Below are positions 12,078 through 38,356 of a stretch of DNA of 64,000 bases, one piece after another. The notes under the pieces were generated by a model. That model made no database searches, had not been told where the DNA came from, and was given only the letters and a program-made list of their open reading frames with translations. Position 1 is the stretch's first letter. Every line of letters starts with the position of its first letter. Where the stretch lies: contig CAVYAY010000001.1 in the NCBI GenBank assembly GCA_963766645.1, positions 531,020-595,019 of the forward strand, read 5' to 3'. The position numbers and the translations under genes were made by a program. The DNA is from an uncultured Chloroflexia bacterium (GTDB lineage Bacteria; Chloroflexota; Dehalococcoidia; DSTF01; WHTK01).

Positions 12078-13442
12078 TTAGGCTTGTTCGGTTTGACTGA
12101 GTCCGGCATTGGCAATCCGAAGCTTGAAATCAGAATCGATCTCAACGAGCCGCTCGTGGTCCAGGAGGGTGGAGAGGGAGACGGGGAATGGACGCGGTAA
12201 TTGAGCCGGAGACCCACCGAAGGCCGCGACTTCACCTAGTCGGGAGATGCGCTCAGGCGTGTAGCCAAGAAGGCTTCGCAAGACCAGCTCGTTATGCTCG
12301 CTAAAGCCAGGTGCGCGGAGCCTCACTCCGTGCGCGCTCTCGCTGAAATGCCAGGCGGCTCCCGGATGGGGCTTCGGCTCGATACCGGCACTCGCTGGAT
12401 GGCCGAACCATCGGAAGAAATCACGCGCCTTCAAGTGCTCATTCAGCACGAGATCACGCCCGTCAAGCACGGCCCCCGCCGGAATTCCCTGTGACTGCAG
12501 GCTCCACATCAGCGACATAGGCTCCTTCCCGCGTGTCCAGTCACCCAATTGCTGCTCGAGTTCGTCCAGGCTTTCTAGCCGTCCGGCGGCAGATTCGAAG
12601 CACTGGGCGGCGGCCCACTGCGGGTCGCCCATCGCGGCGCGTAGGCCACGAAATTGATCGTCCGTAGTGACCGCGATCGCGATCCAGCGGTCGTTGCCGC
12701 GGCATGGGAAGATCCCGTGCGGTGCAATGGCCGGGTGGCGGTTGGCTCGCCTCGTCGGCGATACCTCGTTAGCTGCCGCGTCCAGGAAGTGCTCGCCGAT
12801 CAAGGAAGCCTGCGCTTCAACCTGAGACAGGTCGATGGCCGAACCCTTGCCGGTACGTCGTCTTCGGAAGAGGGCCAGCAGCACAGCAAGCACGGCCTGT
12901 TCCGCGGCGACGTAGTCGGTATGCGGCACGTCCGGCAGCACAGGTGGACCGTCCGCGTATCCCGTAAGCGAGGCCAGTCCGGACGCCCCCTCCGTGGTCG
13001 GGTTCGCCGCGCGGTAATTTGCCCACGGGCCCGTGTGTCCGTATCCGGTTGACGAGAGCATGATCAGACGCGGGTTGATCTCTTGCAGCGATTCGTAATC
13101 GAAACCGAAGTTCGTCATGACTCGTGGCGTGTAGTTCTCCATCAGGACGTCGCTGACCCGGACCAGGTCGATGAACACTTCGCGGGCTTCGGGGACCCTC
13201 AGGTCTAGCGAGATGCCCAGCTTGCCGCGGTTTTCGTTGTAGAAAGTCCCGCCTCGGTCCCAATAATTTTCGCCGGGCTCGTTGTCCGGGAAAGAGGTGC
13301 GTCGGTATGAGTCGAGGCGGAGCGGCGACTCGACTTTGATGACCTCCGCCCCCAGATCGGCCAACATCCGCGCGGCGAAGGGCACGGCGAGCAGCTGACC
13401 AACCTCAATGATACGAATGCCGGCAAGTGGGGCCTTCTTCAT
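12078..13442 (-). CDS. Family III CoA-transferase (CaiB/BaiF/Frc family)
   Basis: N-terminus MKKAPLAGIRIIEVGQLLAVPFAARMLADLGAEVIKVESP. Start ATG 13442 overlaps the upstream TGA as ATGA. Confidence 0.85.
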   Translation of the reverse strand: MKKAPLAGIRIIEVGQLLAVPFAARMLADLGAEVIKVESPLRLDSYRRTSFPDNEPGENYWDRGGTFYNENRGKLGISLDLRVPEAREVFIDLVRVSDVLMENYTPRVMTNFGFDYESLQEINPRLIMLSSTGYGHTGPWANYRAANPTTEGASGLASLTGYADGPPVLPDVPHTDYVAAEQAVLAVLLALFRRRRTGKGSAIDLSQVEAQASLIGEHFLDAAANEVSPTRRANRHPAIAPHGIFPCRGNDRWIAIAVTTDDQFRGLRAAMGDPQWAAAQCFESAAGRLESLDELEQQLGDWTRGKEPMSLMWSLQSQGIPAGAVLDGRDLVLNEHLKARDFFRWFGHPASAGIEPKPHPGAAWHFSESAHGVRLRAPGFSEHNELVLRSLLGYTPERISRLGEVAAFGGSPAQLPRPFPVSLSTLLDHERLVEIDSDFKLRIANAGLSQTEQA

Positions 13443-14518
13443 AGCACGAACGGGCCTCTTGGTGCAGTGAGCAGACGGCCATCGCGGCTTTCGATCTCGC
13501 GGAAGAAACCGCGCGCTCCGTGCTGCTCGCACTCAAGGGCCTGGGCCGGTGTCATCACGATACCTCCGTTCATGCCCCAGAGTTGTGTGCCCTCGAAGAA
13601 ATCGGCCATTCGCCACGTCTTGAGACGCTCGGACAGCAGCCGCGAGAGCTCCTCCCGGTGCTCCTCGCGTCCTTCGCCTGTCGCGAACTTATCGTCCGCC
13701 AGTTCCGGTGCCTCCATGAAGCGCGCGAAATCTTGGAATTGAGTGCCTAGCCCGGAAGGGATCACGTAACCATCTGCGCAGGGCGTGACCTTCCCGGCGC
13801 CGCCCGCGGCCCGGTCGCTACGACGCCGCACTGCGCCCATATAGGTGTAGTCGGCTATCGTCTCGCGAAGCGCTGAGGCCACCATCTCCATCAGAGAGAT
13901 GTCGACGTGCTCCCCCTCGTCATCGCAGTTGAGAAGGGCGGCGACCGTCGCGCTTGCCGCCACTACGCCACCGCGGTACTCTGCCTGCGGATTGCCGTGG
14001 ATAAGCGGCTCGCGCAACGGATGACCATGGACCAGCGCTGCGCCACCGAGAGCCGTCACGACGATGTCCGTCGCCAAAAAGTCACGATAAGGACCTGTCT
14101 GACCGAAGCCGGTGATTGAGGTCAGGATGAGGCGAGGATTAGCATCATGCAGCCTCTCCCAACCAAGGCCCCATTCGTCCAGCGTGCCCGGCGTGAAGGA
14201 CTCAACAACCACGTCGGCGTCTCGGACGAGCTCAAGCAACTGCTCGCAGCCCTCGTCTGACATCAGGTCAAGCGCCAGGCTCGGCTTGGCGTGGTTGAGA
14301 TAGAGGAAGAAGAGGCTCTCGCGTGAGCCGTCGGCGGCTTCGAGGAAGGGCGGCGTGTCCCGTAATGGATCGCCGCCGGGCCCTTCAATCCGAGTCACAC
14401 TGGCGCCGTAGTCGGCAAGGAGCCGGGTGCAATACGGCCCAGACACACCCGTTGAGAGGTCAATAACCCTGACCCCCTCGAGGACTGGCGCGTCCTGGGC
14501 GTCATCTGAGGCAGCCAT
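13439..14518 (-). CDS. Family III CoA-transferase
   Basis: LEGVRVIDLSTGVSGPYCTRLLADYGASVTRIEGP. Start trimmed to M39 of the track ORF (ATG 14518). Confidence 0.8.
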   Translation of the reverse strand: MAASDDAQDAPVLEGVRVIDLSTGVSGPYCTRLLADYGASVTRIEGPGGDPLRDTPPFLEAADGSRESLFFLYLNHAKPSLALDLMSDEGCEQLLELVRDADVVVESFTPGTLDEWGLGWERLHDANPRLILTSITGFGQTGPYRDFLATDIVVTALGGAALVHGHPLREPLIHGNPQAEYRGGVVAASATVAALLNCDDEGEHVDISLMEMVASALRETIADYTYMGAVRRRSDRAAGGAGKVTPCADGYVIPSGLGTQFQDFARFMEAPELADDKFATGEGREEHREELSRLLSERLKTWRMADFFEGTQLWGMNGGIVMTPAQALECEQHGARGFFREIESRDGRLLTAPRGPFVL

Positions 14519-14570
14519 GTTCAGCGCCCTCTCGTCACGTGCCCGAGTGAGGTCACGCGAGCTCCCGGTT

Positions 14571-15340
14571 CTACCTGACCTTCCACTCTGCCGGCCGCTT
14601 CTCCGCAAACGATTTCGGTCCCTCGATCGCATCCTCAGCCTGCACCAGGCGCTCGTAGATTAGCTGCACCAGCGGGGCCACCGCGTCGGGTGGGTTACCA
14701 ATGGCGCGTGTGACCATCTCCTTCGCGGCCCGTACTGCTAAGGGTGAGTTCTCGCAGATCGACTGGCCCATCTCATCGCGGCGGCCATGAGTTGATCGGC
14801 CGGGACGACCTTGTTGACCAACCCCGCCTCGTAGGCGCGCGCCGCGCTAATCTGCTTCGCGGTAAATAGCATCTCCAGCAGAAGAGTTTTCGGGATTTCA
14901 CCCAGCAGACTCGGCGCAAAGCCTGCCATCAGACTCCAGCGCGCCTCCGGCAGACCAAACGTGGCGCTTTCCGAAGCGATGCGCAGATCGCAGCGAAGCA
15001 TTCGCGCGAAGCCACCGCCAAGGGCGTAGCCGTTCACGGCTGCAATGATCGGCTTCCAGCTTTCCTGCGCGGGACGAGCACGGCGGGCGGGCGGGCGGAC
15101 GGGCTTGCCTTCAGCGCTCTCTTCTGCTGTCCGCTTGAGGTCGCGGCCCACCGAGAATGCCCGGCCGGTCCCTGTGATAATCGCAACCCACATATCGTCG
15201 TCGCTGCGAAAGTCCTCTTCGAACTCAGCCATGAGGGAGCCGGCCTCCGAGCTCAGCGCGTTGAGCCGCTCGGGACGGTTCATTGTGATGATTGCGATGT
15301 GGTCGTCCCGTTTCTCGTACAGGACCTGCGGCTCGCTCAT
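14571..15340 (-). pseudogene. Enoyl-CoA hydratase/isomerase (crotonase) interrupted by a single frameshift near 14763
   Basis: [29 protein letters not shown]... in ORF 14738..15790 continues as ...[16 protein letters not shown]...AEKRPAEWKVR in ORF 14571..14771. It is collinear with the intact paralog 23880..24647. The span is 770 nt, not a multiple of 3. GAGGAG lies upstream of ATG 15340. Confidence 0.7.
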
Positions 15341-15521
15341 GGAATTTCTCCTCTGCTCTTCGTCAGGTAAGACGGCAGCTACATTCCGCCAGCCTGTCGG
15401 ACTCGTCAAGGTCGCAAACAAACTGGCATGGGGACTGGCCGTACCTGCCACTCGTTCGTATAACCCGTGCGACTGTTGCGCGCTATACTCGCCCAACTCC
15501 CGAAATGGAAGAGTTCGCACC

Positions 15522-16864
15522 GTGTTCGTAATCGGAACCGCCGGCCATGTCGACCACGGCAAGTCGCTGCTGATCGAAGCGTTGACCGGCATCGATCCCG
15601 ACCGCCTGCGCGAAGAAAAGAAGCGCGGCATGACCATCGACCTTGGATTCGCTTGGTTAAAGCTGCCGTCCGGGACTGAGGTCAGCATCGTCGATGTCCC
15701 GGGCCACGAGCGGTTCATCAAGAACATGCTGGCCGGTGTGGGCGGCGTCGACCTCGCGCTCCTGGTCGTGGCCGCTGACGAAGGCGTCATGCCTCAGACG
15801 CGAGAGCATCTTGCGATCCTGGACCTGCTGGGCGCTGAGCGGTGCGTCGTTCCGCTCACCAAGTCCGACCTCGTGGATGACGACTGGATCGAGCTAGTTT
15901 GCAGCGAAGTTCAGGCCGTTGTGTGCAAGTCGTCGCTTGTGCGCTCACCCATCGTGCCTTGCTCCGCCGTTACGGGCCCGGGGCCTCCCGGAGCTTATCG
16001 CCGCAATCGAGGAGAAGATCCATAGTCGAGACGCAGGCCCGCCGCGTGTCCCGGCGTCACGCTGACCTCGACCGGCACGCGTCGCAGGTCAACGGCTCCC
16101 CGGAAGACGCTCTCTACGCCACAATCGCGTCGCCGCAGCCCGTCGAGCCTCCGCGCGTCCATGCCCGGATCGACATCGATCCCGGCCGGGCCGAGGACCT
16201 GCTGCAGTCGCTGATCGCGGACGGCCGAGTCGTCCGGCTGGCGGCCGACGACGGCGGTTTCCTGCTCACACATGATCGTTGCGAGGCGCTGACGCGGCAG
16301 GCGGTTGAGATCGCCATGACTTCGTTGCGGGACCGTCCCTTGCGTTCCGGCTTCCCCAAGGAGGAGCTACGCAGTCGTCTTGACCTCTCGCCCGTCCTTC
16401 ACGGCCTCCTGCTCGCCCGCTGGCACTCCGAGGGCATCTTCATCGAGACAGGGCGGAACGTCGCCCCGCCGGACTGGCAGCCTAATCTCACCCAGGCGCA
16501 GCTCGACATCTGCCGGCGTTACATCGCCGGCGTCGCGCCGTTTTTGCCACCCCTCACGGAGCGCCCGGATGATGAACTGGTTTCGCATCTGGTCGATTCC
16601 GGGCGCGTGGTGGAAACCGACGATGACGTCGTCTTCGAGGCGGGCGCGTATCACCGGATGGTTGACTCCATTGCCGAGAGGCTCGCGGATGGACGCCTCT
16701 TCAGCGCGGCCGAGGTCCGAGACCTCTTCGGGACATCCCGGCGCTATGTCTTGTCGCTGCTCAGCTACCTCGACTCGCAACGCGTCAGGCTTCGACGCGG
16801 CGACGACCGGGCGGCTGGGCCAAACCTGACGAAAGCCAAATCGCTCGGATCCTCGCGCGAATAA
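15522..16864 (+). pseudogene. selB: selB-like remnant: GTPase domain and C-terminal winged-helix region of the selenocysteine-specific elongation factor, lacking domains II-III and spread over three frames
   Basis: From GTG 15522: [23 protein letters not shown]...[15 protein letters not shown]...PLTKSDL (G1-G4 motifs). After ~15985 the sequence [24 protein letters not shown] is in another frame and stops at 16063. The third frame (to 16864) carries the SelB C-terminal motif FSAAEVRDLFGTSRRYVLSLLSYLDSQRVRLRRGDDR. Total is ~447 codons, against the ~600+ expected from my recollection of bacterial SelB. Confidence 0.65.
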
Positions 16865-16865
16865 C

Positions 16866-18134
16866 TTATCGCAGCGGTGCGGTGCCGATAATCTGCTCCG
16901 CCTCCAGCTTGTCCAGTTCTTCGTCGGTCAGGCCCAGCAGGTTGTTCAGCACCGATCGGTTGTGCTCGCCAAGGCCCGGGGCGTGGCGTCTGACCCTCGC
17001 TGCCACACCGTCGATCTTCACGGGCACACCCACGGTCAGCTCGTCGCCGGTCCAGGGCCCGGGGACAGTTTCCAGGATCCCGCGACTTTGCACGTGTTCG
17101 TCGTGGACCAGGTCCTCGATCGTGAAAATGGCCTCCGCCGGCACGCCATGGGCCTGCAGCAGCGTCATCGCTGCCTTCCGCTCCCTCGTGGTCGTCCACT
17201 CCTCGATGAGCCTATCGAGGCTGTCCTGATTCTCGATCCGTCGACGCATCGTCGCGAAGCGCTCGTCGTCCGCAAGCTCCGGTCGCCCCATTGCCTCACA
17301 GAGCGCTTTCCACTCGTCTTCGTGGCTGATGGAGACGACCAGCCATTCGTCGACGCCCTGGCAGCGATAGCATCCGTGGGGTGACTTGAAGCGATGCCGG
17401 TTGGCCGTCGTCTCGAGCACGCGGTTGTTCATCTGGTACTCGAGCACGAGCTCTGGTAAGCAGGCGATCATGGCCTCCGACTGTGCCAGGTCGATGAAGA
17501 CGCCTTTGCCGGTGCGTCGGCGGTGGAATAGCGCCGCGAAGAGCCCTGCTGCCGCGAAAGACCCGTTGATCGGATCTGCGTAAAACTCACCCGTCTCCAG
17601 GTACTCGCCCGGTTTGTAACCTGTGAGACTGATCAGTCCAGAGACTGCCTCCTGCACCGGTCCGTAGGAGAGATAATGCGACTCCGGGCCCTTCGAGCCA
17701 AACCCCGGCATCGACATCATGATCAGGTCCGGCTTAATCTCACGCAGGGCTTCATAGTCGATCCCAAAACGCCTCATGACACCAACGCTGTAGTTCTCCA
17801 CAACCACGTCGGAAATCGCCACGAGACGCTTGAACAGGTCAACGCCGGTAGCGGTTGTCAGGTCGAGCGTAATGCCCAGCTTGTTGCAGTTGACCTGGTT
17901 GAATCGTGCCGCTCGGTTGAAATAGGCATCATCGGGGCCGGCTGCCGTCCGGTTGCGAAACGAGATGCGTTCCGAGTCCGGGTGTTGGATCGATTCGACC
18001 TTGATCACTTCGGCGCCCATGTCTGCCAGCCAGCGCGTCGCATAGGGGCCGGCCCACACCTGGGTCACGTCGAGCACGCGAATGCCTTCGAGAGGCAAGT
18101 TTGCCATCCCGTCCTCCCCTGTCGTCGCCATCAC
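16866..18134 (-). CDS. Family III CoA-transferase
   Basis: LEGIRVLDVTQVWAGPYATRWLADMGAEVIKVES. C-terminus GLGEHNRSVLNNLLGLTDEELDKL. GTGA overlap with the upstream gene. Confidence 0.85.
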   Translation of the reverse strand: MMATTGEDGMANLPLEGIRVLDVTQVWAGPYATRWLADMGAEVIKVESIQHPDSERISFRNRTAAGPDDAYFNRAARFNQVNCNKLGITLDLTTATGVDLFKRLVAISDVVVENYSVGVMRRFGIDYEALREIKPDLIMMSMPGFGSKGPESHYLSYGPVQEAVSGLISLTGYKPGEYLETGEFYADPINGSFAAAGLFAALFHRRRTGKGVFIDLAQSEAMIACLPELVLEYQMNNRVLETTANRHRFKSPHGCYRCQGVDEWLVVSISHEDEWKALCEAMGRPELADDERFATMRRRIENQDSLDRLIEEWTTTRERKAAMTLLQAHGVPAEAIFTIEDLVHDEHVQSRGILETVPGPWTGDELTVGVPVKIDGVAARVRRHAPGLGEHNRSVLNNLLGLTDEELDKLEAEQIIGTAPLR

Positions 18135-19349
18135 ATAGCGCCCTGCTGATTCAGCACCATGAGGTCGTGTCCTGTAAGGCCCAGCTCACCCAGCAAAGCG
18201 GCGTTGTGCTCGCCAAGTGTTGGCCCCCTGACCGACCGTGGTAGCTCCGCTCCCGTTACCACGTAGGGCGTCCCCGGCATCTTGATCGCGCCGCCTGGCA
18301 AGTCGGCCTGCCAGAAATAGCCCCGAGTTTCGAGCTGCTTGGATGCCAGGAGGTCCGGCCCCGTGGCGACCATCCCGGCCGGCAGCCGGTGTTCCTGGGC
18401 AATGCGGGTAACCTCGGCCTTTGAGTGCTCAACCAGCCAAGGCAGCGTGTACGCCTCGATTTCGTCCGCATGGGATCCGCGAGTTGCGCGAATCCCGGAA
18501 GCGCGCGTCGTCGAGCTCCTCAGCGCCGACCATGTCGATGAAGTCGTCCCACCAGTCGCGTGCCATGATGAGCGAGAAGACGACGCTACCGTCCGCCGCC
18601 GGAAGAATCCCGGCCGGGAAGGCCCGCCCTCGGTCGCCGACGCGCTGCGGCACGGCGCCAGTCGCCGAGTATCTGCGGACGGAGCTGCCGTGCAGCGTGC
18701 AGAAGCTCTCCAGCACCGAGACGTCCACGTGCGTGCCTTCGCCCGTCGCCTCGCGCTGGTACAGCGCCGCCAGCGTCCCGCTCAGCGCCGTCGTCGCGGC
18801 GATGTACTGGGCGAAGTTGCCTCCCTTCTTCAACGGCGGCTTGTCCGCTTCGCCGGCGATGAACATCTCGCCGCTGATTGCGTGGATTCCAATCTCGTCC
18901 GCTTTGTAGTCGCGGTAAGGGCCCGTCTGACCAAAGTTGGAGATCGAGGTGACCACCAACCGGCGATTCGCCTGCCGGAGTTGTTCGTAGCTCAGGCCCA
19001 GAATCGGCATCACGCGCGGCTCGAAGTTCTCGATCAGGACATCGGCTTTTGCGGCCAGCTTGAGCAGAAGGTCCCTTCCTTCCGACGTCTTGAGATTGAG
19101 CGTCACCCCCAGCTTGTTGCCGTTGAGGTAGTGAAACAGCCCACTCTGCTCGCGGTCCGGGATGTCGTCGCGAAACGGGCCCAGGTCTCGCGAAGCATCT
19201 CCCCACGGCGGCTCGACTTTGATGACCGTGGCGCCGAGACTTCCCGTCAGCCGGGCGCAGTAAGGGCCCGAAATGTAATGACCGAGGTCGATTACCGTGA
19301 GGCCTCCAAGAAGGCCGGAGCCCCTATCAAGCTCTCGCGTGTCTGCCAT
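18131..19349 (-). pseudogene. Family III CoA-transferase with one frameshift in a GGG/CCC run at 18472..18474
   Basis: N-part is ORF 18429..19349 (LGGLTVIDLGHYISGPYCARLTGSLGATVIKVEPP). The C-part continues in another frame (HADEIEAYTLPWLVEHSKAEVTRIAQEHRLPAGMVATG...TLGEHNAALLGELGLTGHDL) into ORF 18131..18373. The span is 1219 nt. Confidence 0.7.
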
Positions 19350-19534
19350 TAAACCCCCTCCGACTGCCCCGAGGCAGCGCGGATCATAGCAGCGGCCCGA
19401 TACCCGTTCGATGGGTATAACCGCTGCTTTGGGGAGATTCTTGCCTATTCAGCGCCCCGCCACGTCCAATCCGCCCGCTCCGAATCATACCGTTTGGTTA
19501 TCGACGACCGGCTTCCGAGCTTCGAGTCCATAGA

Positions 19535-20785
19535 ATGACGAGGCCCTGGCGGTACATCCGTCCAACGGTGAGTAGAACGCGAGGTGCATTCGATATTGTG
19601 ATACCGCTACAAGGACTTCGAGTCCTCGATCTTTCAGAGGGCATCGCGGGCCCCTTTTGCACCAAGCTCCTCGCCGACTACGGCGCCGAGGTCATTAAGG
19701 TCGAGCGGCCGGGCACCGGTGATTGGACCCGTCAACGGCCACCCTTCTACCGCGGTGAGCCGGGTACCGAGCACAGCCTGCTCTTCGCCTATCTGAACAC
19801 GAGTAAACGCAGTCTCACACTCGACCTCGAAAGCGCCGCTGGACGCGACATGGTCTATAGGCTCGCCGCCGAATCGGACATCCTCGTCTTGAGCCAGCCG
19901 CTGACCTTCCTCGACTCGCTGCCGGGTGGCCGTCAGGCGCTGCGCACGGCGAACCCGAAGCTCGTCGTCAGCTCTGTGCCCTACTACGAGGGGGAAGGGC
20001 CATATGCCAACTACAAGGCAACCGAACTGACCCTGTACGCGATGAGCGGGCTAATGTCCATGGCGACCGGCGATCAGCGCGGCCGTCTCAAGGCCGGCGG
20101 CTACCAGGCGCAGTACATGGCCGGCGCCCAGATCTGCTCCTATACGCTGTTCGCGGCGCTGAAGGCGCGTAGGCAAGGCACCGGGAGCTTCATCGAGGCT
20201 TCCGTGGCCGAATGCTGCGCGCGCGTTCTCGCCCACATGCAGAGCTACGTGCCGGGCCAGTCACGAGAGCGCTCAACGCCAATTCAGGAGGGCTCGACCT
20301 GGGAGTGTGGCGAAGGCTCCCTCATGATCATGATGTACTACTACCAGATGGAAACCCTGGGAGCGCTGATCGGCGACCCCACCCTCAAAAGCGACACCAG
20401 CACGGGTGCCGACATCGGGATGCGTGAGAACCGCCGCGTCTGGCAGGACCCGCTGCGTGCATGGCTGAAGACCAAGACCGCGGACGAGGCGGAAACCGAG
20501 GCCCAGCGCGAGCACCTCCTTTTCAGCAAGGTCAATAACACCAGGGACGTCGTCGAGTCTGAACACCTCAACGCCCGCAATTTCTTCGTCGACGTTTTCC
20601 ATCCGGTGATCGGACCGGCAAGGTTTCCCATCGGCTCATACCACCTGACCGGTAACGATCGAAACCCACCGCAGGCCGCCCCCGTCCTGGGTGAAGCGAA
20701 TGACTTCGTGCTGCGACAGCGTCTGGGTCTCACCGAAGCCGATCTCGCCCATGTTTCAAGCGCCAGATCAGGAGCCCAAGAGTGA
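19535..20785 (+). CDS. Family III CoA-transferase
   Basis: LQGLRVLDLSEGIAGPFCTKLLADYGAEVIKVERP. The exact start is uncertain. Confidence 0.8.
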   Translation: MTRPWRYIRPTVSRTRGAFDIVIPLQGLRVLDLSEGIAGPFCTKLLADYGAEVIKVERPGTGDWTRQRPPFYRGEPGTEHSLLFAYLNTSKRSLTLDLESAAGRDMVYRLAAESDILVLSQPLTFLDSLPGGRQALRTANPKLVVSSVPYYEGEGPYANYKATELTLYAMSGLMSMATGDQRGRLKAGGYQAQYMAGAQICSYTLFAALKARRQGTGSFIEASVAECCARVLAHMQSYVPGQSRERSTPIQEGSTWECGEGSLMIMMYYYQMETLGALIGDPTLKSDTSTGADIGMRENRRVWQDPLRAWLKTKTADEAETEAQREHLLFSKVNNTRDVVESEHLNARNFFVDVFHPVIGPARFPIGSYHLTGNDRNPPQAAPVLGEANDFVLRQRLGLTEADLAHVSSARSGAQE

Positions 20786-22020
20786 CTGTAAACTCCGCAA
20801 ACGGCCTCGACCTGCCACTCTCCGGAGTTCGCGTCCTTGACCTCACCCACCGCTTCGCCGGACCAACCCTGACTATGCTCCTCGGCGACTGGGGTGCGGA
20901 CGTCATCAAGATCGAATGGTGGGATCGCATGGACGCATGGCGCGGCATGATCAGCGTCAAACACGATAAGGACGGCGAACAGGCTTACAACAAGCGGCCT
21001 AACTGGCTGAAGCTGAACCGCAGCAAGCGCAGCCTGACCCTCAATCTGAAGGAGGAGAAGGGCCAGGGAGTCTTCCTCGACCTTGTCCGGCAGTCGGACG
21101 TCGTAGTCGACAACTTCAGTGCCAGCGTTCTCGACCGTCTTGGACTCGGCTATGACGTGCTGCGTGCCGCCAACTCGCGCATCATCTCGCTCTCGCTACC
21201 GGGATTCGGCAACTACGGCCCCCATTCTGATTACGTGAGCAACGGCGGGACCATACAGGGTTACGCCGGCGTCGCGTCGATCACCGGCTACGAGGATGAC
21301 CACAAGCCGCGTGTTTCTATCGGCATCTGGGCCGACCCGGTCTGCGGCGTCCACGGCGCCTCGGCCATCGGCATGGCGCTCCTGGCACGAGAGCTCACCG
21401 GCGAAGGGCAGCGTATCGAGCTCGCGCAGGCCGAGAACATGGCCTCGACTCTCGGCGAATCGATTCTCAACTACACCGTCAACGGAATCGTCGACCAGCC
21501 GCTTGGCAACGCCGACGCAGCGATGGCACCGCACGGATGCTACCCCGCTCTCGGTGAGGACGAGTGGATCACGATTGCCGTCGCCGACGATGCGCAGTGG
21601 TCCGCGCTTTGCTTGCTTGCTGGCCATCCGGAATGGCTCAAGGATGAACGGTTTAAGTCGCAGCGGCTGCGCTGGGAGAACAGGGCAGGCCTGGATGAGC
21701 TCATGCGCCAATGGACCGTCGGCGAGGATAAATGGGCGCTCACGGACCGTCTCCAGGAGGTGGATATCGCCGCTGCGCCGGTCGTGACCATCGCCGATTT
21801 CCACGAACGAGAATCGCTCCCCGCGAGCAACTTCTACCAGGAACTCGACTACCCCTACATGAAATCCTACCCCGGCCCGGGCGTGAGGCTCGACGGGGCG
21901 CCGATCGCGCTGCGCCTGCCGCCGCCTATGCTCGGCGAGCACAATGAGGCGATCCTGAGAGAGCTGCTCGGCTATGGTGACGACGACATCGAGGCGCTGC
22001 GTCGGGCCGGCGTGATCTAG
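20782..22020 (+). CDS. Family III CoA-transferase
   Basis: LSGVRVLDLTHRFAGPTLTMLLGDWGADVIKIE. C-terminus MLGEHNEAILRELLGYGDDDIEALRRAGVI. GTGA overlap with the upstream gene. Confidence 0.85.
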   Translation: MTVNSANGLDLPLSGVRVLDLTHRFAGPTLTMLLGDWGADVIKIEWWDRMDAWRGMISVKHDKDGEQAYNKRPNWLKLNRSKRSLTLNLKEEKGQGVFLDLVRQSDVVVDNFSASVLDRLGLGYDVLRAANSRIISLSLPGFGNYGPHSDYVSNGGTIQGYAGVASITGYEDDHKPRVSIGIWADPVCGVHGASAIGMALLARELTGEGQRIELAQAENMASTLGESILNYTVNGIVDQPLGNADAAMAPHGCYPALGEDEWITIAVADDAQWSALCLLAGHPEWLKDERFKSQRLRWENRAGLDELMRQWTVGEDKWALTDRLQEVDIAAAPVVTIADFHERESLPASNFYQELDYPYMKSYPGPGVRLDGAPIALRLPPPMLGEHNEAILRELLGYGDDDIEALRRAGVI

Positions 22021-22042
22021 CCGGGACGAGCCTCCCGGGCCG

Positions 22043-22984
22043 TTACCCGCCTTCGCACAGAAACGGCAACAGCAGGTCGAGGAACTCCTGCGTCTTCTGG
22101 GTGTGCACGTTGTGACCTGCGCCCGCGACCGTTTCCAGCCGAGCGTTTGGCAGGCACGCGATGAATCGCTCCGCCGCGTCCGATTTGATCAGAGGGCTCT
22201 CTTCGCCGCGGATCAACAGCACAGGACAGGAAACTCCGGCAAGCTCCTCCGGGCTAATTGGTGGACGCGCCGGCAAAGGTGCCCCCGAATTCCCGAGGCG
22301 TGGATATTGCTTGCTGACCAGCTTGCCGTCGGATCGCTGCATCAGATTGAAGCGCATTGTTCGCAGAATGCGTTCCTCGCTTCGGTCTGGCTCCCGTTCC
22401 TGCACCCGCGCAACGTAATCTTCAACCGAGTCGAATTCGCGCGTCGAGCGGACAAACTCCACGATTTGCTGGCGTCCTTCGAGCGCTGACTCCGGACCCG
22501 TATCGACGAGAACGAGCCGCTTCGCGACATCATGTCTGGTGACGAGACTGAGCGCGGTGCGGCCGCCCATCGAGTGCCCTACGATGTTCGGTCGCTCCAG
22601 TCCCAATGCCCGGATCACGCCCAGCACGTCGTTGGCCATCAGCTCCGTAGACATCTCGCCGTCGCGCGGCCATTCGCTGTCGCCGTGGCCGCGCTGGTCA
22701 ACGGCAAAGATCTGAAAATCGTGACACAGCGTCGCGGCCACCATGTCCCAGACGTGGGCCGTCTGGTTACCCCCGTGCAGCATGAGCATCGCAGGCTTTG
22801 ATGCGTCTCCCCATTCAAGGAGATGGAAGCGTAATCCGCCGCTCACGACGTTTCGCGAGTAGCACGAAATCGGCAGGACGGGCTCAAGGCCGCGCTCCCG
22901 CATCGCAATCAAGACGTTCGCAAAATCCTCGCTATCGGTCATGTCCAACCGATCGGCGCTCTCTGAGAAGGTGTTCAGGTACAC
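22043..22984 (-). CDS. Alpha/beta-fold hydrolase
   Basis: HGGNQTAHVWD oxyanion region, nucleophile elbow IVGHSMGGRTAL, and C-terminal GAGHNVH. Confidence 0.75.
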   Translation of the reverse strand: MYLNTFSESADRLDMTDSEDFANVLIAMRERGLEPVLPISCYSRNVVSGGLRFHLLEWGDASKPAMLMLHGGNQTAHVWDMVAATLCHDFQIFAVDQRGHGDSEWPRDGEMSTELMANDVLGVIRALGLERPNIVGHSMGGRTALSLVTRHDVAKRLVLVDTGPESALEGRQQIVEFVRSTREFDSVEDYVARVQEREPDRSEERILRTMRFNLMQRSDGKLVSKQYPRLGNSGAPLPARPPISPEELAGVSCPVLLIRGEESPLIKSDAAERFIACLPNARLETVAGAGHNVHTQKTQEFLDLLLPFLCEGG

Positions 22985-22999
22985 GCGCTGTGCCTCTAA

Positions 23000-23878
23000 C
23001 TAGGCGGTCGAGATGGCATCAGCATAGGCGATCAGGTCTCGGGCGCGCCGGACAATCGCAGTGTCCACCATGCGGCCGTCAACCTGGATCGAGGCTTCGC
23101 CCCGCGCCTCGGCCTCAACGAACGCCGCAACGATGCGGCGCGACTCTTCGACGGCTTCAGCCTTGGGCTCGAAGACCCTGTTCACGGGTTCTACCTGAGC
23201 CGGATGGATCAGGTGCTTGCCTTTAAAGCCAATCGATTTCACGTAAGTCGTTTCGGCTACCAGTCCGGCTTCGTCCTTGAAGTCTCCGAATGGCGTGTCC
23301 AGCGGCTGAAGCCCGTATGCGACCGCGCAGTGAGCGATGATACGCCGTACGTACTCCAGCTCGCCGCCGGCGGGAGTGCGGTCCACACCCATGTCGGCGA
23401 CGTAGTCAAAGCCGCTCAGCGCTAGACCGATCGACCGCGGCGCCGCCGAGGCGATATCGCGGCAATTCAGCACTCCCATCGCCGACTCCACATGGGGCAC
23501 CAGGCCGATGCTACCGGCCGCGATCGAGGCGTTGGCTTCCAGACGACCGATCATCTCGTCCAGCCGTCCGATTTCCTCACCGGTTTTCGCCTTCGGAAAC
23601 GCGATGCCGTCTAGCCCCGGGACGATAACTGCTGTCAGGTCCCCCTCCGTAAGCCCGGTTTCAAAGTGGTTGACCCGGACGTGCACCGTTTTACCGGCTG
23701 CCTTCAGTGAAGCCACCGACGCTGCGATACCCGCGCGCGTCGCTTCCTTCTCGGCCGGCGGCACGGAATCCTCCAGGTCGAGGATGATGACGTCGGCCGG
23801 CGTTTGGTGAGCGCGAGCCACCATGTTTTCTCGATTGGCAGGGACGTAAAGCATCGAACGTAGTATCAGCATGGTCAC
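23000..23878 (-). CDS. HpcH/HpaI aldolase / citrate-lyase beta (CitE)-like CoA-ester lyase
   Basis: SMLYVPANRENMVARAHQTPADVIILDLEDSVPPAEKEATR is the CitE / malyl-CoA / citramalyl-CoA lyase N-terminal signature. Confidence 0.8.
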   Translation of the reverse strand: MTMLILRSMLYVPANRENMVARAHQTPADVIILDLEDSVPPAEKEATRAGIAASVASLKAAGKTVHVRVNHFETGLTEGDLTAVIVPGLDGIAFPKAKTGEEIGRLDEMIGRLEANASIAAGSIGLVPHVESAMGVLNCRDIASAAPRSIGLALSGFDYVADMGVDRTPAGGELEYVRRIIAHCAVAYGLQPLDTPFGDFKDEAGLVAETTYVKSIGFKGKHLIHPAQVEPVNRVFEPKAEAVEESRRIVAAFVEAEARGEASIQVDGRMVDTAIVRRARDLIAYADAISTA

Positions 23879-23879
23879 C

Positions 23880-24647
23880 CTAGCGGCCGCTCCACTGCGG
23901 CTGGCGCTTCTCGCGGAAAGCCTTGGGGCCTTCCAGCGCGTCCTCGGCTTCGAGAAGCTCGTCGTACACCTTTCGGACCATCGGCCTTACCTCTTCGGCA
24001 GGCAGCGTCAATGCTCGCTGGATGATCTCTTTGTGGGCCCTGACCGAAAGCGGAGAATTGCGGCAGATCTTCCGTGCATAATCAATCGCCGTGGGCATCA
24101 GCTCCTCCGGCGACACGACCTTGTTGGCGAAGCCGATCTCGTACGCGCGCTGAGCGCCGATCGGCTCGCCCGTCAGGCACAGCTCCATTAGCGCGCTCAG
24201 CGGTATCTGGTTCAGCAACGTGGGCGCAAAACCGGCGAGCAGGTGCCATTTCGTCTCCGTGATGCCGATCTGCGCCGTCTCCGACATGATGCGTATGTCG
24301 CAGCGCTGTGCATGTCCCCACCCGCCGCCATACGCAAACCCGTTGATCGCCGCGATCATCGGCTTGAAGCTCTCGGTCGGCACAACCCCGTTCTCCGGAG
24401 GCCTCGGGGCCTGCCCAGCGTCATCCGCCGCTGCGCGTTCCTTCAAGTCCCGCCCCACGCAGAACCCCCGGCCGGTCCCGGTAACGATGGCCACCCAGGC
24501 GCTGTCATCCGCCTTGAAACGCTCATAGCTCTCTGCCAGCGTCCGTGAAAGCTCTCGGTTCAGGGCGTTCAGCGCCTCCGGCCGGTTCAGTGTGATTACG
24601 ACAATGTGATCGTCGACTCGGTCGTAGAGAACAACAGGTTCTGCCAT
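23880..24647 (-). CDS. Enoyl-CoA hydratase/isomerase (crotonase)
   Basis: ITLNRPEALNAL...VTGTGRGFCVGRDL...AAINGFAYGGG. 255 aa. Confidence 0.85.
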   Translation of the reverse strand: MAEPVVLYDRVDDHIVVITLNRPEALNALNRELSRTLAESYERFKADDSAWVAIVTGTGRGFCVGRDLKERAAADDAGQAPRPPENGVVPTESFKPMIAAINGFAYGGGWGHAQRCDIRIMSETAQIGITETKWHLLAGFAPTLLNQIPLSALMELCLTGEPIGAQRAYEIGFANKVVSPEELMPTAIDYARKICRNSPLSVRAHKEIIQRALTLPAEEVRPMVRKVYDELLEAEDALEGPKAFREKRQPQWSGR

Positions 24648-24874
24648 GTCGGGACCCCTTTCGGGGGTTCACTCTAGCACCCGCACGCACCTGCTTCCGA
24701 AGTATTCCCGTTTGTACTGGAGCGCCTTTCAGCGGCCCACCCCAAAGGAATCTTGTAGACGCTTTCGATCGCCGGGATCGCGGACCTTCATAACCGGTGT
24801 GCACTGTCTTTGACACCCGGAATTACCGATGCTAGCTTCGCAAAGCTGTACAAGCGCTGAGCAAGGAGAATCGC

Positions 24875-25933
24875 ATGGTAACTCAGACTGCCGGAATCGA
24901 AGTTCTCAACCCGGTGGCTCAAACGGCCGCCGACGGCCAGGCGGTCCCGGCCGGCGATCTGCTGATGGCAGACCACGAGACGTTCGCGGGAGCGGACAGC
25001 TTCGACTCCTGGGAGAACTTCAACACCGAGTTCCTTGACCGCGGCTGGGGCGATGGCTTTCCCCTCGTGGCCCCGACCCGCGAGCGCGTAAATGCGTTCC
25101 TCGATTCTGTCAGGCACCTGGAGCTGGGGCCGTTGGACGTCATCGGCAAGCCCGTCGCTCCTGGCAACGGGATCGCGACGGTCGAGAAGCTCGCCATCAA
25201 CTGTGCAATGGCTGGTTGCCGTCCTGAGCACCTGACTGTCCTGATCAGCACGATTGAGGCAATCACCGAGACAGAGGATGTTGCCTTTCAGGCCGACCTC
25301 CAGTCGCCCGCCGGGCACTTCCCGATGATGCTGGTCAGTGGCCCGATAATACAGCAGATGGACATCAACTCCGGCATGTGCAGCCTGGGGCCGGGCAAAC
25401 CCTCGTTGGTCAACACCGTCCTCGGGCGCGCCCTGCGGCTCATCCTGATGAACGTTGGCCACGCATACCCGACTGCCAAGGACCTTGATACGATCGGCGT
25501 ACCGCAGAAGTTCAGTTACTGCCTCGCTGAGAACGAAGCCCAGAACCCCTGGGACGAACCCTTCCACGTTGAAATCGGTTTCCAACCCTCGGACAGCGTC
25601 ATTACCGTCTTCAGCGTCAGCGAAGTGGGCCACTTCGGCGGTTACACGGCAGAGCCGGAGCGTCTTCTCATCAGCCTTGCCAGGGGCATGCGGCACGCCG
25701 GCGGCGGTGAGCACGACGACAGCGGGCATCAGTACCTCATCATGTACTGCCCGGACCACGCGCGCAGCATGCACGTCGGCGGTGAGACCAAGGAGTCGAT
25801 CCGAAAGTTTGTTGTCGAAAACGTGCCCCTGAAGAACGGTGATAACGTGCACTTCACCGTCGTCGGCGGTCCGTCTTCCGGCAGCCACGTCTACAGGGCA
25901 TTGCCCTCCATCAGCAAGACGATTCGGCTCTAA
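24875..25933 (+). CDS. Uncharacterised 'GDGFP...AMAGC' family protein, copy P1 (no adjacent UxxC partner)
   Basis: 352 aa with AAGGAGAA upstream. Shares GWGDGFPLV, ATVEKLAINCAMAGCRPEHL, LGPGKPSLVNTVLGRALRLILMNVG and NPWDEPFHV with three paralogs in the window. I recognise no family name for it. Confidence 0.7.
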   Translation: MVTQTAGIEVLNPVAQTAADGQAVPAGDLLMADHETFAGADSFDSWENFNTEFLDRGWGDGFPLVAPTRERVNAFLDSVRHLELGPLDVIGKPVAPGNGIATVEKLAINCAMAGCRPEHLTVLISTIEAITETEDVAFQADLQSPAGHFPMMLVSGPIIQQMDINSGMCSLGPGKPSLVNTVLGRALRLILMNVGHAYPTAKDLDTIGVPQKFSYCLAENEAQNPWDEPFHVEIGFQPSDSVITVFSVSEVGHFGGYTAEPERLLISLARGMRHAGGGEHDDSGHQYLIMYCPDHARSMHVGGETKESIRKFVVENVPLKNGDNVHFTVVGGPSSGSHVYRALPSISKTIRL

Positions 25934-25990
25934 TACCGGAGGATCGCCTCCCGGCAGCAGGGCGGCGGCATCGAGATCGGGGGGTGCTGC

Positions 25991-28270
25991 GTGGCGGGTG
26001 CACTCGAAGGCATACGCGTCATCGATTTCGGCCAGTACATCGCCGGCCCGCTGGTCGCCATGCTCCTCTCCGACCAGGGCGCCGACGTCATTCGCGTCGA
26101 CCCGCCGGGTGGCCCGCGCTGGAGTCACCCAGCCAACGCCACGCTGAACCGCGGCAAGCGCCGATTAGAACTGGACCTTAGAGACCCGGCCGGCAAGACA
26201 GCCGCACTGAGTCTGATCGGCAGCGCCGACGTTGTTATCGAGAACTTCCGGCCCGGCGTCATGGAGAGTCTCGGGCTCGCCTGGGAGCAGGTGAGCCCTG
26301 ACCACGAGAGGCTCATCTACTGCTCGATTCCAGCCTTCGCCGCTGACGACCCTCGTGCCCGCTTGCCTGGCTGGGAAGGCGTCGTCGCCGCGGCGACTGG
26401 CGCTTTCCCCACTCGCCCCGGCCGCCGTCACCCGGCGAGCGCGGTCGAGCCAGAGGCAGTCGACGCGCCCCGGTTCACGGCGCTGCCGCTCGCGTCGGAG
26501 TACGGCGCGGTGGCGGCCGCGATCGGCATAGCGATGGCGTTGATCGCTCGCGAGCGCGACGGACTCGGGCAATGTCTGGAGATACCCCTCTTCAATGCGA
26601 TGTTTCTCGCCATCGGTTCCAGTGGCCTGCTGGTCAACGGCGGACCCTCGGGTGGACGCCCGATGGATCCCTGGGGCGGCATCTTCCCCGCCAAGGGCGA
26701 AGGCCGTGTGCTCATGAGCCTGCCCACGCCGCGATTCCTCGACACTTTCCTCAAGGCCACTGGCAAAGACCGCGAATGGGAAGACAAAGGCTACCTCGCG
26801 GCGGACGCCGTCAACGACAAGGATCTGATGGCGCGCCTTCAGCAAGACCTCGTCGACGTGTTCATGTCTCGCACTGCCGACGAGTGGGACGAACTGGCGA
26901 CCGAGGTAGGCGTCCCCGTAACGCCGGTGCGTCAGGCCCGCGGCTGGATGGAGGCGAAGCATACGCATGAGGCGGGGATATTCGTCTTGGTCGACGATCC
27001 GGAATTCGGGCCGATGGTCCAGCCCGGTCCGTCGATTAAACTCAACGGCACGCCGGGCGGCGTGCAGGCGCCGCGCGCGGCAACCGCCTCTCCGGGCATC
27101 GATGGCATCGACGTTACAGCCGCTATCGCCGGGCCCACAAAGGAACAACCCCTATCGGCGCCTCTCGAAGGCTTCCGGGTCATTGACACCACGTCGATCC
27201 TCGCCGGGCCCACGGCTGGCCGGACGCTCGCTGAGTTCGGCGCCGAGGTTATCAAGGTCAACAACCCTTGGGAGCAGGGGTCCGGTTATCGCTGGCAGGT
27301 CCACCGCTACCACAGCGACGTCAACCGCGGCAAGAAGTCGATCCTCATCGACCTGAAGCAGCCAGCGGGCCTCGACCTCCTCTGGCGGCTGGTCGAGAAG
27401 TCAGACGTCTACCTGCAGAACATGCGCCTCGGCGTTGCGCAGCGCCTCGGTGTTGCCTACGCGGACGTCAAAAAGCACAAGCCCGACATCGTCTACCTTT
27501 CGATCTCGGCCTTCGGCTACGGCGGGGAGTGGGAGTATCGTCCCGGCTATGAGCCCGTCGCGCAGAGCTTTTCGGGTATGCAGGCCCGCGGGCCCCAACC
27601 CTACGCCGTGAACGATTACTGCACAGGGTTGCTCGGCGCTTTCGGCGTTGGATTGGCTCTCTTTCATAGGCTACGCAGCGGTGAGGGGCAGAGCGTTGAG
27701 ACCTCGTTGGCCCACGCGTCAACCTATCTTCAGCTCCCTTACATGCAGCTCTACGCGGGCAAAAAGTGGGACGAACCCTCCGGCCCCCACGCCCGCGGCT
27801 GGAGCCCGCTACAGCGCATGTATCGCGCCAGCGACGGATGGTTCTTCTTGGGCGCGGCGTCCTCCCAGATAGACGCGCTGGCTTCGATCGCGGGGTTGGA
27901 AGCTGCGAAGCAGCCGACAGGAGACGCCCTGGCCGGCGCCCTCGAGGCCGCGTTCGCGGGGAAGACCGCGGCTGCCTGGGTCAAGTCGCTTACTGCTGCC
28001 GGGCTCGGCGCGTACCCCATCGGTATCACGGAGCCGGAGCTAATGGCCGATCCTTGGGTCGTTGACCACGGCCTCAGCGTCACCCAGACCTACAAGGACG
28101 GCTCGCGTATCACGACCATCGGCCCTCCTTGGCGCCTGTCCCGTACGCCCCCTTCCGTGCGACACCTCGTTTCGCCTCCTGGTGGCGATGCATACGAGGT
28201 TATCGCGAAAGCCGGCCTCAAGGACCGATTCGAAGAGCTTGTGCGCGAGAAAGCGGTTCTCCTCGAATAG
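25991..28270 (+). CDS. Tandem (two-domain) family III CoA-transferase
   Basis: 759 aa. Domain 1 starts LEGIRVIDFGQYIAGPLVAMLLSDQGADVIRVDPP. Domain 2 starts near residue 390 with LEGFRVIDTTSILAGPTAGRTLAEFGAEVIKVNNP. Confidence 0.8.
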   Translation: MAGALEGIRVIDFGQYIAGPLVAMLLSDQGADVIRVDPPGGPRWSHPANATLNRGKRRLELDLRDPAGKTAALSLIGSADVVIENFRPGVMESLGLAWEQVSPDHERLIYCSIPAFAADDPRARLPGWEGVVAAATGAFPTRPGRRHPASAVEPEAVDAPRFTALPLASEYGAVAAAIGIAMALIARERDGLGQCLEIPLFNAMFLAIGSSGLLVNGGPSGGRPMDPWGGIFPAKGEGRVLMSLPTPRFLDTFLKATGKDREWEDKGYLAADAVNDKDLMARLQQDLVDVFMSRTADEWDELATEVGVPVTPVRQARGWMEAKHTHEAGIFVLVDDPEFGPMVQPGPSIKLNGTPGGVQAPRAATASPGIDGIDVTAAIAGPTKEQPLSAPLEGFRVIDTTSILAGPTAGRTLAEFGAEVIKVNNPWEQGSGYRWQVHRYHSDVNRGKKSILIDLKQPAGLDLLWRLVEKSDVYLQNMRLGVAQRLGVAYADVKKHKPDIVYLSISAFGYGGEWEYRPGYEPVAQSFSGMQARGPQPYAVNDYCTGLLGAFGVGLALFHRLRSGEGQSVETSLAHASTYLQLPYMQLYAGKKWDEPSGPHARGWSPLQRMYRASDGWFFLGAASSQIDALASIAGLEAAKQPTGDALAGALEAAFAGKTAAAWVKSLTAAGLGAYPIGITEPELMADPWVVDHGLSVTQTYKDGSRITTIGPPWRLSRTPPSVRHLVSPPGGDAYEVIAKAGLKDRFEELVREKAVLLE

Positions 28271-28292: not shown

Positions 28293-29489
28293 TCAGATCG
28301 GCCGCGCGGCGTGGATGATCTCTCGCGTCACCGTCGGGTTCCCCATGCACGGCACCAGGTCGCTCTGCCCGTTCGGCCCGCCAACCACGACGATCTGCAC
28401 CTGCTCCGGGTTCTGAAACTCCGGCACGAGCTCTTCCGGGTCCATGGCCTCGAGGCGTTGCTGAAGGTCAGCTGGTAGCGCTTCCCAGCCGACTGACATC
28501 GTCGCCAGTGCCTGCTTCAGGGGCCTCCGCGCGTTTTGCAGCAGGTACTCCCTGATCGAGGTCTTGGTGTGACCCGATTCGCTGAGGACACGAGCGTGGT
28601 CGGGCGCCAGCAGCATCACCTGGCAAGACCCTCCTTCGCCCTCCGTCCGGCTCGGTATCAAGCCCGAAGGACCGCCCGATGCGGACGCCTTGCCGGCCCA
28701 GCCCAGCAATATCTTCTCCGCGTCGGCCTGGTAGTTGTTGTAATGCACCATGCTGTTCGCCCCGTACACGGTGACCGTGCTAGCGCTCCGCTCGAAACCC
28801 TTTTCGACGTGCAGCGGCTCCCAGGGGTTCTGCGCCTCGTTCTCAGCCACGCACATGCTGTACTTGGTCGGGCTGCCGATGGTGTCCATGTCGCCACTGC
28901 CGGGGTAGCAGTGGCCTACGTTCATCAGGACCAGCCGGAGCGCCCGGCCCAGGACTGTATTCACCAGCGACGGTTTGCCGGGGCCGAGGGTGCAGCGCCC
29001 GTTGTTGATACCCAGCTCCTGGACAATTGGCCCGTTGATCACCAGCATCGTCGTCGTCGGGTTCGTCGACATCGTGATGCCGCGGACGGGAAACACCTCC
29101 TGCGGTGTTTCGAGGATCGCCTCCACCGCTGCGATCAGTACCGCGAGATGCTCCGGCCGGCAGCCGGCCATGACTGCATTGACCGCGACCTTCTCCACTG
29201 TCGCGGCACCGTAAAACGGCGCCAGCTTGCCGAGGACGAGGCCGGGCGGCAAGCGCACCGCGCGCAGCGCCGCTTCAACGCGCGCGCGTGTCGGCGGGAC
29301 GAGCGGGAACCCGTCGCCAATGCCGCGCTCGTTGAAATCGCCGTTGAATCGGTCCCACGCCTCGATCAAGTCTTCGCCGTGGTAGCGCTCCCGCCGTGCG
29401 GGCAGCGGTTCCCGCCCGCGCAGGTCTGCCTCCAGCTGAGCCACCGGGTTCAGAACATCTAGCGTGGCGGTATCACTGCGGGAGCTCAT
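28293..29489 (-). CDS. 'GDGFP...AMAGC' family protein, copy P2
   Basis: GIGDGFPLVPPT, ATVEKVAVNAVMAGCRPEHLAVLIAAVEAI, LGPGKPSLVNTVLGRALRLVLMNVGHCYP, NPWEPLHV. The N-terminus has LDVLNPVAQLEAD. Confidence 0.7.
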   Translation of the reverse strand: MSSRSDTATLDVLNPVAQLEADLRGREPLPARRERYHGEDLIEAWDRFNGDFNERGIGDGFPLVPPTRARVEAALRAVRLPPGLVLGKLAPFYGAATVEKVAVNAVMAGCRPEHLAVLIAAVEAILETPQEVFPVRGITMSTNPTTTMLVINGPIVQELGINNGRCTLGPGKPSLVNTVLGRALRLVLMNVGHCYPGSGDMDTIGSPTKYSMCVAENEAQNPWEPLHVEKGFERSASTVTVYGANSMVHYNNYQADAEKILLGWAGKASASGGPSGLIPSRTEGEGGSCQVMLLAPDHARVLSESGHTKTSIREYLLQNARRPLKQALATMSVGWEALPADLQQRLEAMDPEELVPEFQNPEQVQIVVVGGPNGQSDLVPCMGNPTVTREIIHAARPI

Positions 29490-29523: not shown

Positions 29524-30027
29524 TCAGGACTCCCGGATCAGGCAAGCGATAATCGAATCGAGAGCCGCCTCGGCTGCCTCTTCCACTTGGCTGTCCGACA
29601 GGGTTGCCAGCAACCTTCGCAACTCCACGAACTCGTAGTTCTGCAGGCCCATCACCCGCGCCATAGAGCGTACGATGTTCGCATAGGCCCGGTTGCATAT
29701 TGTCACGCCCGGCTTGCCGTCCCGTTCGGCGGCATACATGTCGTGCAAACTGCACGACGCGCACGGCGCTCAATCGCCAATCGCAGTGATGAAGACGTCC
29801 GCACGGGGGATGAAGCCCTCAAGCAGCTTGCTGTCGGCCGGCCAGGTTGGCTCGAGCTTGCTTGCCCAGACTACATCCCGCAGGTTGAACCGCGCCCGGA
29901 GGAGCTCAACGACCTTCTCCAGAAAGACCTTGCTCCCATGCTTGTTATTGTCGAGTACGCCTAGCACGAGCCCGTCCAGGCTGACGGGACGTTCCGCGGC
30001 CAGTGTCTCGCCAGAGTCCCTCGACAA
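29524..30027 (-). CDS. Putative small selenoprotein, UxxCxxC variant (U-A-P-C-A-S-C) of the UGSC-type family (U3)
   Basis: ORF 29770..30027 ends ...FITAIGD-TGA (29772..29770). The same frame stays open for 81 more codons: APCASCSLHDMYAAERDGKPGVTICN...ACLIRES (ORF 29524..29748 is its tail). It is collinear with the other two UxxC genes. Confidence 0.65.
29740..29758 (-). promoter_or_regulatory. SECIS-like hairpin, 11 nt after the TGA
   Basis: mRNA GUCGUGC-AGUUU-GCACGAC: perfect 7-bp stem with a 5-nt loop. Confidence 0.55.
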
Positions 30028-30037
30028 AGCTATTTCC

Positions 30038-30283
30038 CTACCTGGCCGGGACGATCTCGACTTCCCTCACGTACGGCGCCTGCGCCTTGCACATCGCCTC
30101 GGCCATCTCCTTGAACGCGTCTGGCTCCATGATGCACTCGGGGCATTCCGCGTTCGTGCCCTCGTAATAACGGACGCGTAGCACGCCGGCTTCAACGTTC
30201 ATGGGCTCGACGATTACGCCCTCGTTGTCCTCCAGGGATGACCTCAGCGTGTTCAGAATGAGCTCGATTTTCTCGTCGATCAT
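30038..30283 (-). CDS. NifU/Nfu C-terminal-domain-like small protein with a CPEC motif
   Basis: 81 aa. IELILNTLRSSLEDNEGVIVEPMNVEAGVLRVRYYEGTNAECPECIM matches the Nfu pattern (dGG..elv....g.v.v...G.C..C). Confidence 0.6.
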   Translation of the reverse strand: MIDEKIELILNTLRSSLEDNEGVIVEPMNVEAGVLRVRYYEGTNAECPECIMEPDAFKEMAEAMCKAQAPYVREVEIVPAR

Positions 30284-33081: not shown

Positions 33082-33183
33082 GATAGCCTCCTGACGACGA
33101 CAGCCTATGCATTTCTGGCATATTGTAGCCAAGTTCCATACCTGATTGGTATGATGGCCGCTCGTCAGAGACCTCTCGGGTAC

Positions 33184-34128: not shown

Positions 34129-34164
34129 CGCTCACTTCCCAGTACATCAGATAGCCCGCCCTGA

Positions 34165-37064: not shown

Positions 37065-37066
37065 CG

Positions 37067-38341: not shown

Positions 38342-38356
38342 CTGCGAAAGTCGTAG

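Follow-up and report, generated by a model that had tools for sequence, protein, structure and literature searches.

A selB remnant with a 566-nt internal deletion and UGSC genes that keep an in-frame TGA in a soil Chloroflexota

Bacteria have lost selenocysteine (Sec) decoding on many occasions, and intermediates of this process are rarely caught. In the decoding factor SelB, the beta-barrel domains II and III are needed for binding of Sec-tRNA. A disrupted selB gene has been described for Yersinia pestis (Romero et al. 2005, PMC1273633). The gene is a pseudogene in Y. pestis CO92/biovar Mediaevalis and is intact in strain KIM. In the former, a frameshift within a poly-G tract disrupts the gene. 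In CO92, selA, selC and selD have been retained, and a UGA codon is still present in the gene for formate dehydrogenase, which the authors interpreted as a very recent loss of Sec decoding (PMC1273633). A second system that is relevant here is the UGSC/Unknown_1 fusion, which has been described from ocean metagenomes (Zhang & Gladyshev 2008, PMC2398784).

We analysed a 64-kb stretch of DNA (64,000 nucleotides, referred to as the window) from an uncultured soil Chloroflexota. It contains a remnant of selB and three genes related to the UGSC family, each with an in-frame TGA. The organism is present in public soil-metagenome runs of one study, and the runs X1, X4 and X7 were used for comparison. 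X1 represents the same strain as the window (0-1 differences per contig).

Architecture of the selB remnant

The remnant is located on the forward strand (15522-16864). Its 5' part (15522-15976, frame 0) has a GTG start and codes for the GTPase domain, as assigned by Pfam, by TIGR00475 and by alignment to the homologues P0001-P0005. Pfam matched GTP_EFTU in 15522-16025 (E 1e-32), and the top NCBIfam match of this piece is TIGR00475 (selB; 214 bits, profile positions 2-167 of 581). The G motifs of SelB are invariant in the homologue alignment, and the remnant shows DVPGHERF, TKSDL and SAVTG. The final 15 codons of the G domain (15978-16022, forward strand) align to QGLPVLLDVIDAKIQ of P0001 and reach as far as the left border of the deletion. 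The 3' part (16023-16864, forward strand, frame 2) codes for the last codons of domain III (IVETQARR), a linker and the winged-helix (WH) domains WH1-4, and it closes with a TAA (16862-16864). SelB-wing_2 (PF09106, E 8e-7) and SelB-wing_3 (PF09107, E 2e-10) were matched by Pfam in 16031-16864. Both the G domain and the C-terminal WH region had been recognised in an earlier note on this DNA, and the domain matches confirm this.

The same note considered domains II and III to be absent, which holds true: there is no Pfam match to GTP_EFTU_D2 (PF03144) or Beta-barrel_SelB (PF25461) in 15522-16864, and the remnant has a 566-nt gap relative to the closest homologue, P0001, and its gene, L001. P0001 is intact (631 aa, 74% identity) and originates from a JGI metagenome. 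It reaches 675 bits with a query that reads through the three frames, far above the remaining matches, and it has 69% identity to the WH part over 58% of the query (BLASTP). The nucleotide identity of L001 to the window is 76%. Protein and DNA alignments agree that one block of 566 nt, the middle third of the gene, has been lost between 16022 and 16023, so that single-base indels cannot explain the loss of about 0.5 kb, as had been argued before. The missing block corresponds to about residues 168-356 of P0001 and covers domains II and III; in P0001, Pfam places GTP_EFTU_D2 at 192-266 and Beta-barrel_SelB at 282-362. Its counterpart in E. coli SelB, about residues 163-340, is what we take to be domains II and III of that protein. 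P0001 aligns to residues 2-359 of E. coli SelB (5LZB).

The edges of the deletion can be delineated with L001, with a contig from run X4 that spans the junction (see below) and with a relative found in run X7. Across the junction, the window has GAAGATCCA directly followed by TAGTCGAGACG, while L001 holds 566 nt between these points; the junction sequence is GAAGATCCATAGTCGAGACG. At the right edge, the X7 relative has ACCATCGGCGGTGGGA followed by CCATAGTCGAG (thus GGGA precedes CCATAGTCGAG), and on the left side L001 has AAGATCCA followed by GCAG. When these two sides are compared, CCA (16020-16022) emerges as a 3-nt microhomology at the 16022/16023 junction (16020-16023, forward strand). Such a microhomology suggests that illegitimate recombination or replication slippage is the putative mechanism. 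AGACGC, a motif from L001, was also considered as the microhomology underlying the deletion. It was rejected because the junction is located upstream of this motif and because the X7 relative shows that CCA alone is shared.

A single SelB reading frame of about 620 aa is absent from 15522-16864, the frame being broken at the junction. As 566 equals 3 x 189 - 1, the deletion is out of frame, and the 5' frame consequently ends at a TGA (16063-16065, forward strand), which is 13 codons past the junction in the translation of the corrected sequence. This correction concerns a C-run (15977-15979, forward strand) which has one C more than the short-read data and which shifts the assembly from frame 0 to frame 1. 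Without this additional C, the 5' ORF has 180 aa and is out of frame past the junction. Leaving the deletion aside, both halves of the gene lack internal stop codons. The three frames reported in the earlier note are indeed present in the assembly (frame 0 until 15976, frame 1 until 16022, frame 2 until 16864). The two frameshifts are probably not both biological, however: the one at 15977 is probably an error, and the other is inherent to the deletion.

The earlier note also had a spacer of about 100 nt ahead of the WH region. There is no such spacer and the junction is direct, since SRDAGPPRVP is the frame-1 reading of bases which, in frame 2, code for the end of domain III and the linker. 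Likewise, RDAGPPRVP was rejected as the start of domain II, because the same bases code for IVETQARR when they are read in the frame of the WH part. The description of a SelB that is "reduced to" a GTPase and a WH domain thus has to be replaced by that of a pseudogene, the halves of which are out of frame.

The locus in relatives and the age of the lesion

The X7 relative has 87-96% DNA identity to the window across the region. One of its contigs (463 nt) matches 16020-16208 and then extends upstream for a further 274 nt, which are absent from the window. This extension ends with CGTGATGCCAACGAGACCATCGGCGGTGGGA, which codes for RDANETIGGG; P0001 has LRDANDTIGGG where its domain III ends. A second X7 contig runs from the 3' end of selB into the neighbouring CoA-transferase gene. 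As this contig crosses the boundary between the two genes, the locus is syntenic. Since the X7 relative retains the end of domain III here, the deletion is confined to the lineage to which the window and X4 belong; a comparison of orthologous loci had been proposed in the earlier note. The deletion is common only to strains that are about 99% identical. In the C-terminal tail of SelB, which is variable among homologues, 12 nt are absent in the X7 relative at 16841 (NLTKAKSLGSSRE).

The best 120 database matches have lengths of 616-665 aa, and all of them show the complete set of SelB domains. The listed selB loci (80 from a genome collection and 80 from metagenomes) have about 1.83-1.9 kb each, except for those cut at contig ends. 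Thus, no short SelB was found among the approximately 280 relatives listed (120 proteins and 160 loci). The best of the listed genome-collection loci is 76% identical to the window, and the metagenome loci listed are distant ones. None of the 80 listed genome-collection loci shares flanking genes with the window, so that these are silent with respect to the ancestral context; this context is supplied by the X7 reads. Taken together, the end of domain III in the X7 relative and the full length of the approximately 280 relatives indicate a recent lineage-specific pseudogene at its native locus rather than a short SelB architecture.

Substitution patterns were compared with respect to the age of the lesion. 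In alignment columns that are otherwise invariant (misaligned columns removed), the window has 16 unique substitutions, compared to 9 in P0001. Between the remnant and the X7 relative, there are 12 synonymous and 16 non-synonymous changes, compared to 19 and 8 in the first UGSC gene (g1, see below). The ratio in the remnant would fit a relaxed constraint, and would also fit a weak conservation of the WH domains in general. The substitution counts and the synonymous and non-synonymous counts are compatible with a recent event, while being too weak for dating. The remnant appears to be young, as the little decay beyond the deletion itself fits a recent event.

UGSC genes and their neighbourhood

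All three UGSC genes are encoded on the reverse strand. The first one, g1 (29524-30027), is a member of the UGSC family with a TGA at 29770-29772, in the context IGD-U-APC, and a hairpin at 29739-29758. The second, g2 (30321-32033), is a fusion of a UGSC domain with a domain of about 400 aa and has its TGA at 31731-31733 (TAD-U-GSC). The third, g3 (37067-37708), again belongs to the UGSC family and has its TGA at 37397-37399 (VGA-U-GSC). Each gene has exactly one in-frame TGA, and this is located at the U position. When Cys is inserted at the TGA, the proteins match the whole NF041046 profile (for g1, positions 2-146 of 147). The scores (101 bits for g1, 87 bits for g2, 66 bits for g3) are below the curated cut-off of 125, so that the three are related proteins and not equivalogs by the threshold of NCBI. 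A hairpin is found 14-21 nt downstream of each TGA. The earlier statement that three nearby genes keep their TGA is upheld by the profile matches, which extend across the TGA. The hairpins that were part of this statement are present, but their folding z-scores are only -2.2, -2.6 and -1.2, values that do not decide the matter.

Same-strain contigs are identical to the window in 31540-31845 and 37328-37490, which include the TGA of g2 and of g3, respectively. In the comparison of g1 with the X7 relative, the TGA is unchanged, and there are no base differences at all in 29735-29784. Downstream of the TGA, 6 changes are synonymous and 2 are non-synonymous. With 6 of 8 downstream changes being synonymous, the part of g1 beyond the UGA has been translated for most of the time since the split. 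Between the window and the X7 relative, the codons past the TGA have evolved under purifying selection.

Domains of about 400 aa, paralogous to each other, are encoded at 28293-29489, 30321-31700 and 35946-37145 (all reverse strand) and share the motifs GWGDGFP and INAAMAGC. Each of them adjoins a UGSC domain or is fused to it; the first and the third are free-standing, and the second is part of g2. They have no match to Pfam or NCBIfam and are probably the "Unknown_1" partner known from ocean metagenomes (PMC2398784).

The region between the UGSC genes (32098-35881, reverse strand) codes for a LysR regulator, a thioredoxin reductase and a DUF255/Thioredox_DsbH protein. The top match of the regulator is the selenium-metabolism-associated LysR family (176 bits, with a cut-off of 250), and the thioredoxin reductase matches TIGR01292 (319 bits). 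It is possible that the genes in 32098-35881 form a selenium/redox block. Directly upstream of g1, an 81-aa ORF (30038-30283, reverse strand) has a CPEC motif and lacks a family match.

The selB remnant is located in the middle of a dense gene cluster (12078-28270). This codes for at least seven family III CoA-transferases (one of which is a tandem double-domain protein of 759 aa), two enoyl-CoA hydratases, an HpcH/HpaI aldolase and an alpha/beta hydrolase. The cluster looks like a catabolic island for carboxylic acids/CoA esters. Further away, the genes for tRNA-Glu(CTC) and tRNA-Gln(CTG) are directly 3' of a glutamyl/glutaminyl-tRNA synthetase gene (38266-39973, reverse strand). A Ser/Thr protein kinase is fused to an AAA_16 ATPase domain and is followed by a TPR protein (55642-58206, reverse strand). 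A protein with collagen triple-helix repeats and MopE-type metal-binding motifs is encoded at 61748-63094 (forward strand).

Fate of Sec decoding and comparison with known systems

The explanation that we favor, with some reserve, is that the native selB has been inactivated by a recent deletion and that Sec decoding has probably just been lost. In this scenario, the native selB of a soil Chloroflexota (Dehalococcoidia-like) lineage suffered a recent 566-bp internal deletion, which stripped it of domains II and III and set the SECIS-binding WH part out of frame. The 5' frame is left with a G-domain stub of 180 aa at most, and the 3' part is left without a credible start. SelB-dependent UGA recoding would then most probably be lost, and the UGSC genes, which still have their TGA, would terminate at this codon. 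The deletion with its junction and its occurrence in independent reads, the end of domain III in the X7 relative and the TGA at the Sec position of three genes are observed; we infer both that a second selB does not exist and that Sec decoding has been lost. As the broken copy is found at the native syntenic locus, a very recent loss is judged to be likelier than a second copy.

It is nevertheless conceivable, even though we consider it rather unlikely, that an intact selB is encoded elsewhere in the genome, having been acquired by duplication or horizontal transfer. Sec decoding would then continue, and the copy in the window would be redundant and decaying. Bacterial genomes with two selB genes are uncommon. 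All three UGSC genes keep their TGA, have intact frames downstream of it and have hairpins. With at least three intact selenoprotein genes, a loss of Sec decoding would be costly, which argues for a backup copy or for a polymorphic population. Also, the strain with the deletion was encountered in at least two soil samples, which indicates that it is not strongly counter-selected. No tRNA-Sec was found in the 64-kb window, and neither selA nor selD was found among its scanned ORFs, so that this machinery is located elsewhere anyway. However, the X7 relative keeps selB (the end of domain III) at the same locus, which makes the broken copy the native one and not a stray duplicate. The kept TGA codons carry no weight here, since selection is measurable only over a divergence that is far older than the deletion. 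As the deletion is shared only by strains that are about 99% identical, these codons cannot separate a recent loss from a second selB.

A technical explanation, which we regard as improbable, would be that the deletion arose during assembly or is an allele of a minority of the cells, most cells having an intact selB at this locus. The contig does contain homopolymer errors. Contigs from X1 add a G after 14774, which corrects a homopolymer frameshift in an enoyl-CoA hydratase gene, and they drop an extra G at 34470 in the gene for the DUF255/thioredoxin-domain protein; these two errors are thus proven. The extra C at 15977 is probably another assembly error, because the X4 contig lacks this base and because X1 corrects the two other homopolymer indels; L001 lacks the same base. 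A fourth assembly error is likely in the C-run near 18472 (about 18472-18474), within a CoA-transferase gene (18131-19349). In view of its homopolymer errors, single-base frameshifts of this contig should not be counted as pseudogenes. A loss of 566 nt, however, is not explicable by homopolymer indels. A check of the junction by reads had been suggested in the earlier note. An X4 short-read contig (153 nt, depth 5.9) covers 15946-16097, including the junction, with one mismatch. This is an independent short-read assembly from another sample, it has exactly the same junction, and it does not restore domains II and III. The junction is supported by this one short contig from one run, the available runs having 2-6x coverage; X1 has no contig that covers this position. 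In the large runs X5 and X6 of the same study, only conserved GTPase motifs of other organisms were matched. Among the near-identical strains, loose contig ends were not observed at 16022, and domain III is carried only by the contig of the 87-96% identical X7 relative.

The earlier note had also raised an unusual split or short factor, which is very unlikely given that the listed relatives are full length and that the X7 relative keeps the end of domain III at the locus. Here, a GTPase of 180 aa would work together with a separate WH protein, which would bind SECIS elements and be regulatory. Both halves are free of internal stop codons, and the WH protein might start, for example, from GTG 16046. 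This codon shares the frame of the WH part and overlaps with the 3' end of the 5' ORF, which makes translational coupling conceivable. However, a Shine-Dalgarno-like sequence was not found before this GTG, a short SelB-like protein does not occur among the listed relatives, domains II and III are required for Sec-tRNA binding, and the excess of non-synonymous changes in the remnant (16, with 12 synonymous) is not seen in g1. Isolated C-terminal domains of SelB are said to bind SECIS RNA in vitro (a result attributed to Kromayer and colleagues in 1996). It is tempting to speculate that both halves are used, the GTPase and WH1-4 binding the SECIS hairpins of the UGSC mRNAs and controlling, for example, their translation or stability, with canonical Sec insertion given up or passed to another factor, but we give this hardly any credence.

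When returning to a recent inactivation of the native gene, the case is not extraordinary, but it clearly shows an early stage in a type of gene loss that is already known. With SelB disrupted and the selenoprotein genes still untouched, it would represent an intermediate of Sec loss. The strain with the deletion and the X7 relative form a natural pair, in which the fate of stranded UGA genes is traceable (conversion to Cys, decay or rescue).

The remnant resembles bacterial SelB (TIGR00475; 5LZB from E. coli and 4ZU9 from Aquifex aeolicus) in that its G domain and its WH part are clearly homologous. It differs from bacterial SelB because the counterpart of about residues 163-340 of the E. coli protein is absent and because the halves are out of frame, and it is thus a remnant and not a functional member. 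The three nearby genes are similar to the UGSC selenoprotein family (PMC2398784; NF041046) with respect to the UxxC motif and the TGA at the position of U, and g2 is similar to the UGSC/Unknown_1 fusion (PMC2398784), being joined to an unknown conserved domain. In contrast to the UGSC family, they score 66-101 bits, which is below the cut-off of 125, and the motif of g1 is UAPC and not UGSC. The overall situation is similar to that in Y. pestis CO92: selB is disrupted in the window and in X4, while the close relative from X7 keeps the end of domain III, and the selenoprotein genes (the three UGSC genes) still have an in-frame UGA. It is different from Y. pestis in that domains II and III have been removed by a 566-bp deletion, that the organism is an uncultured soil Chloroflexota and that the stranded genes belong to the UGSC family and do not code for a formate dehydrogenase.
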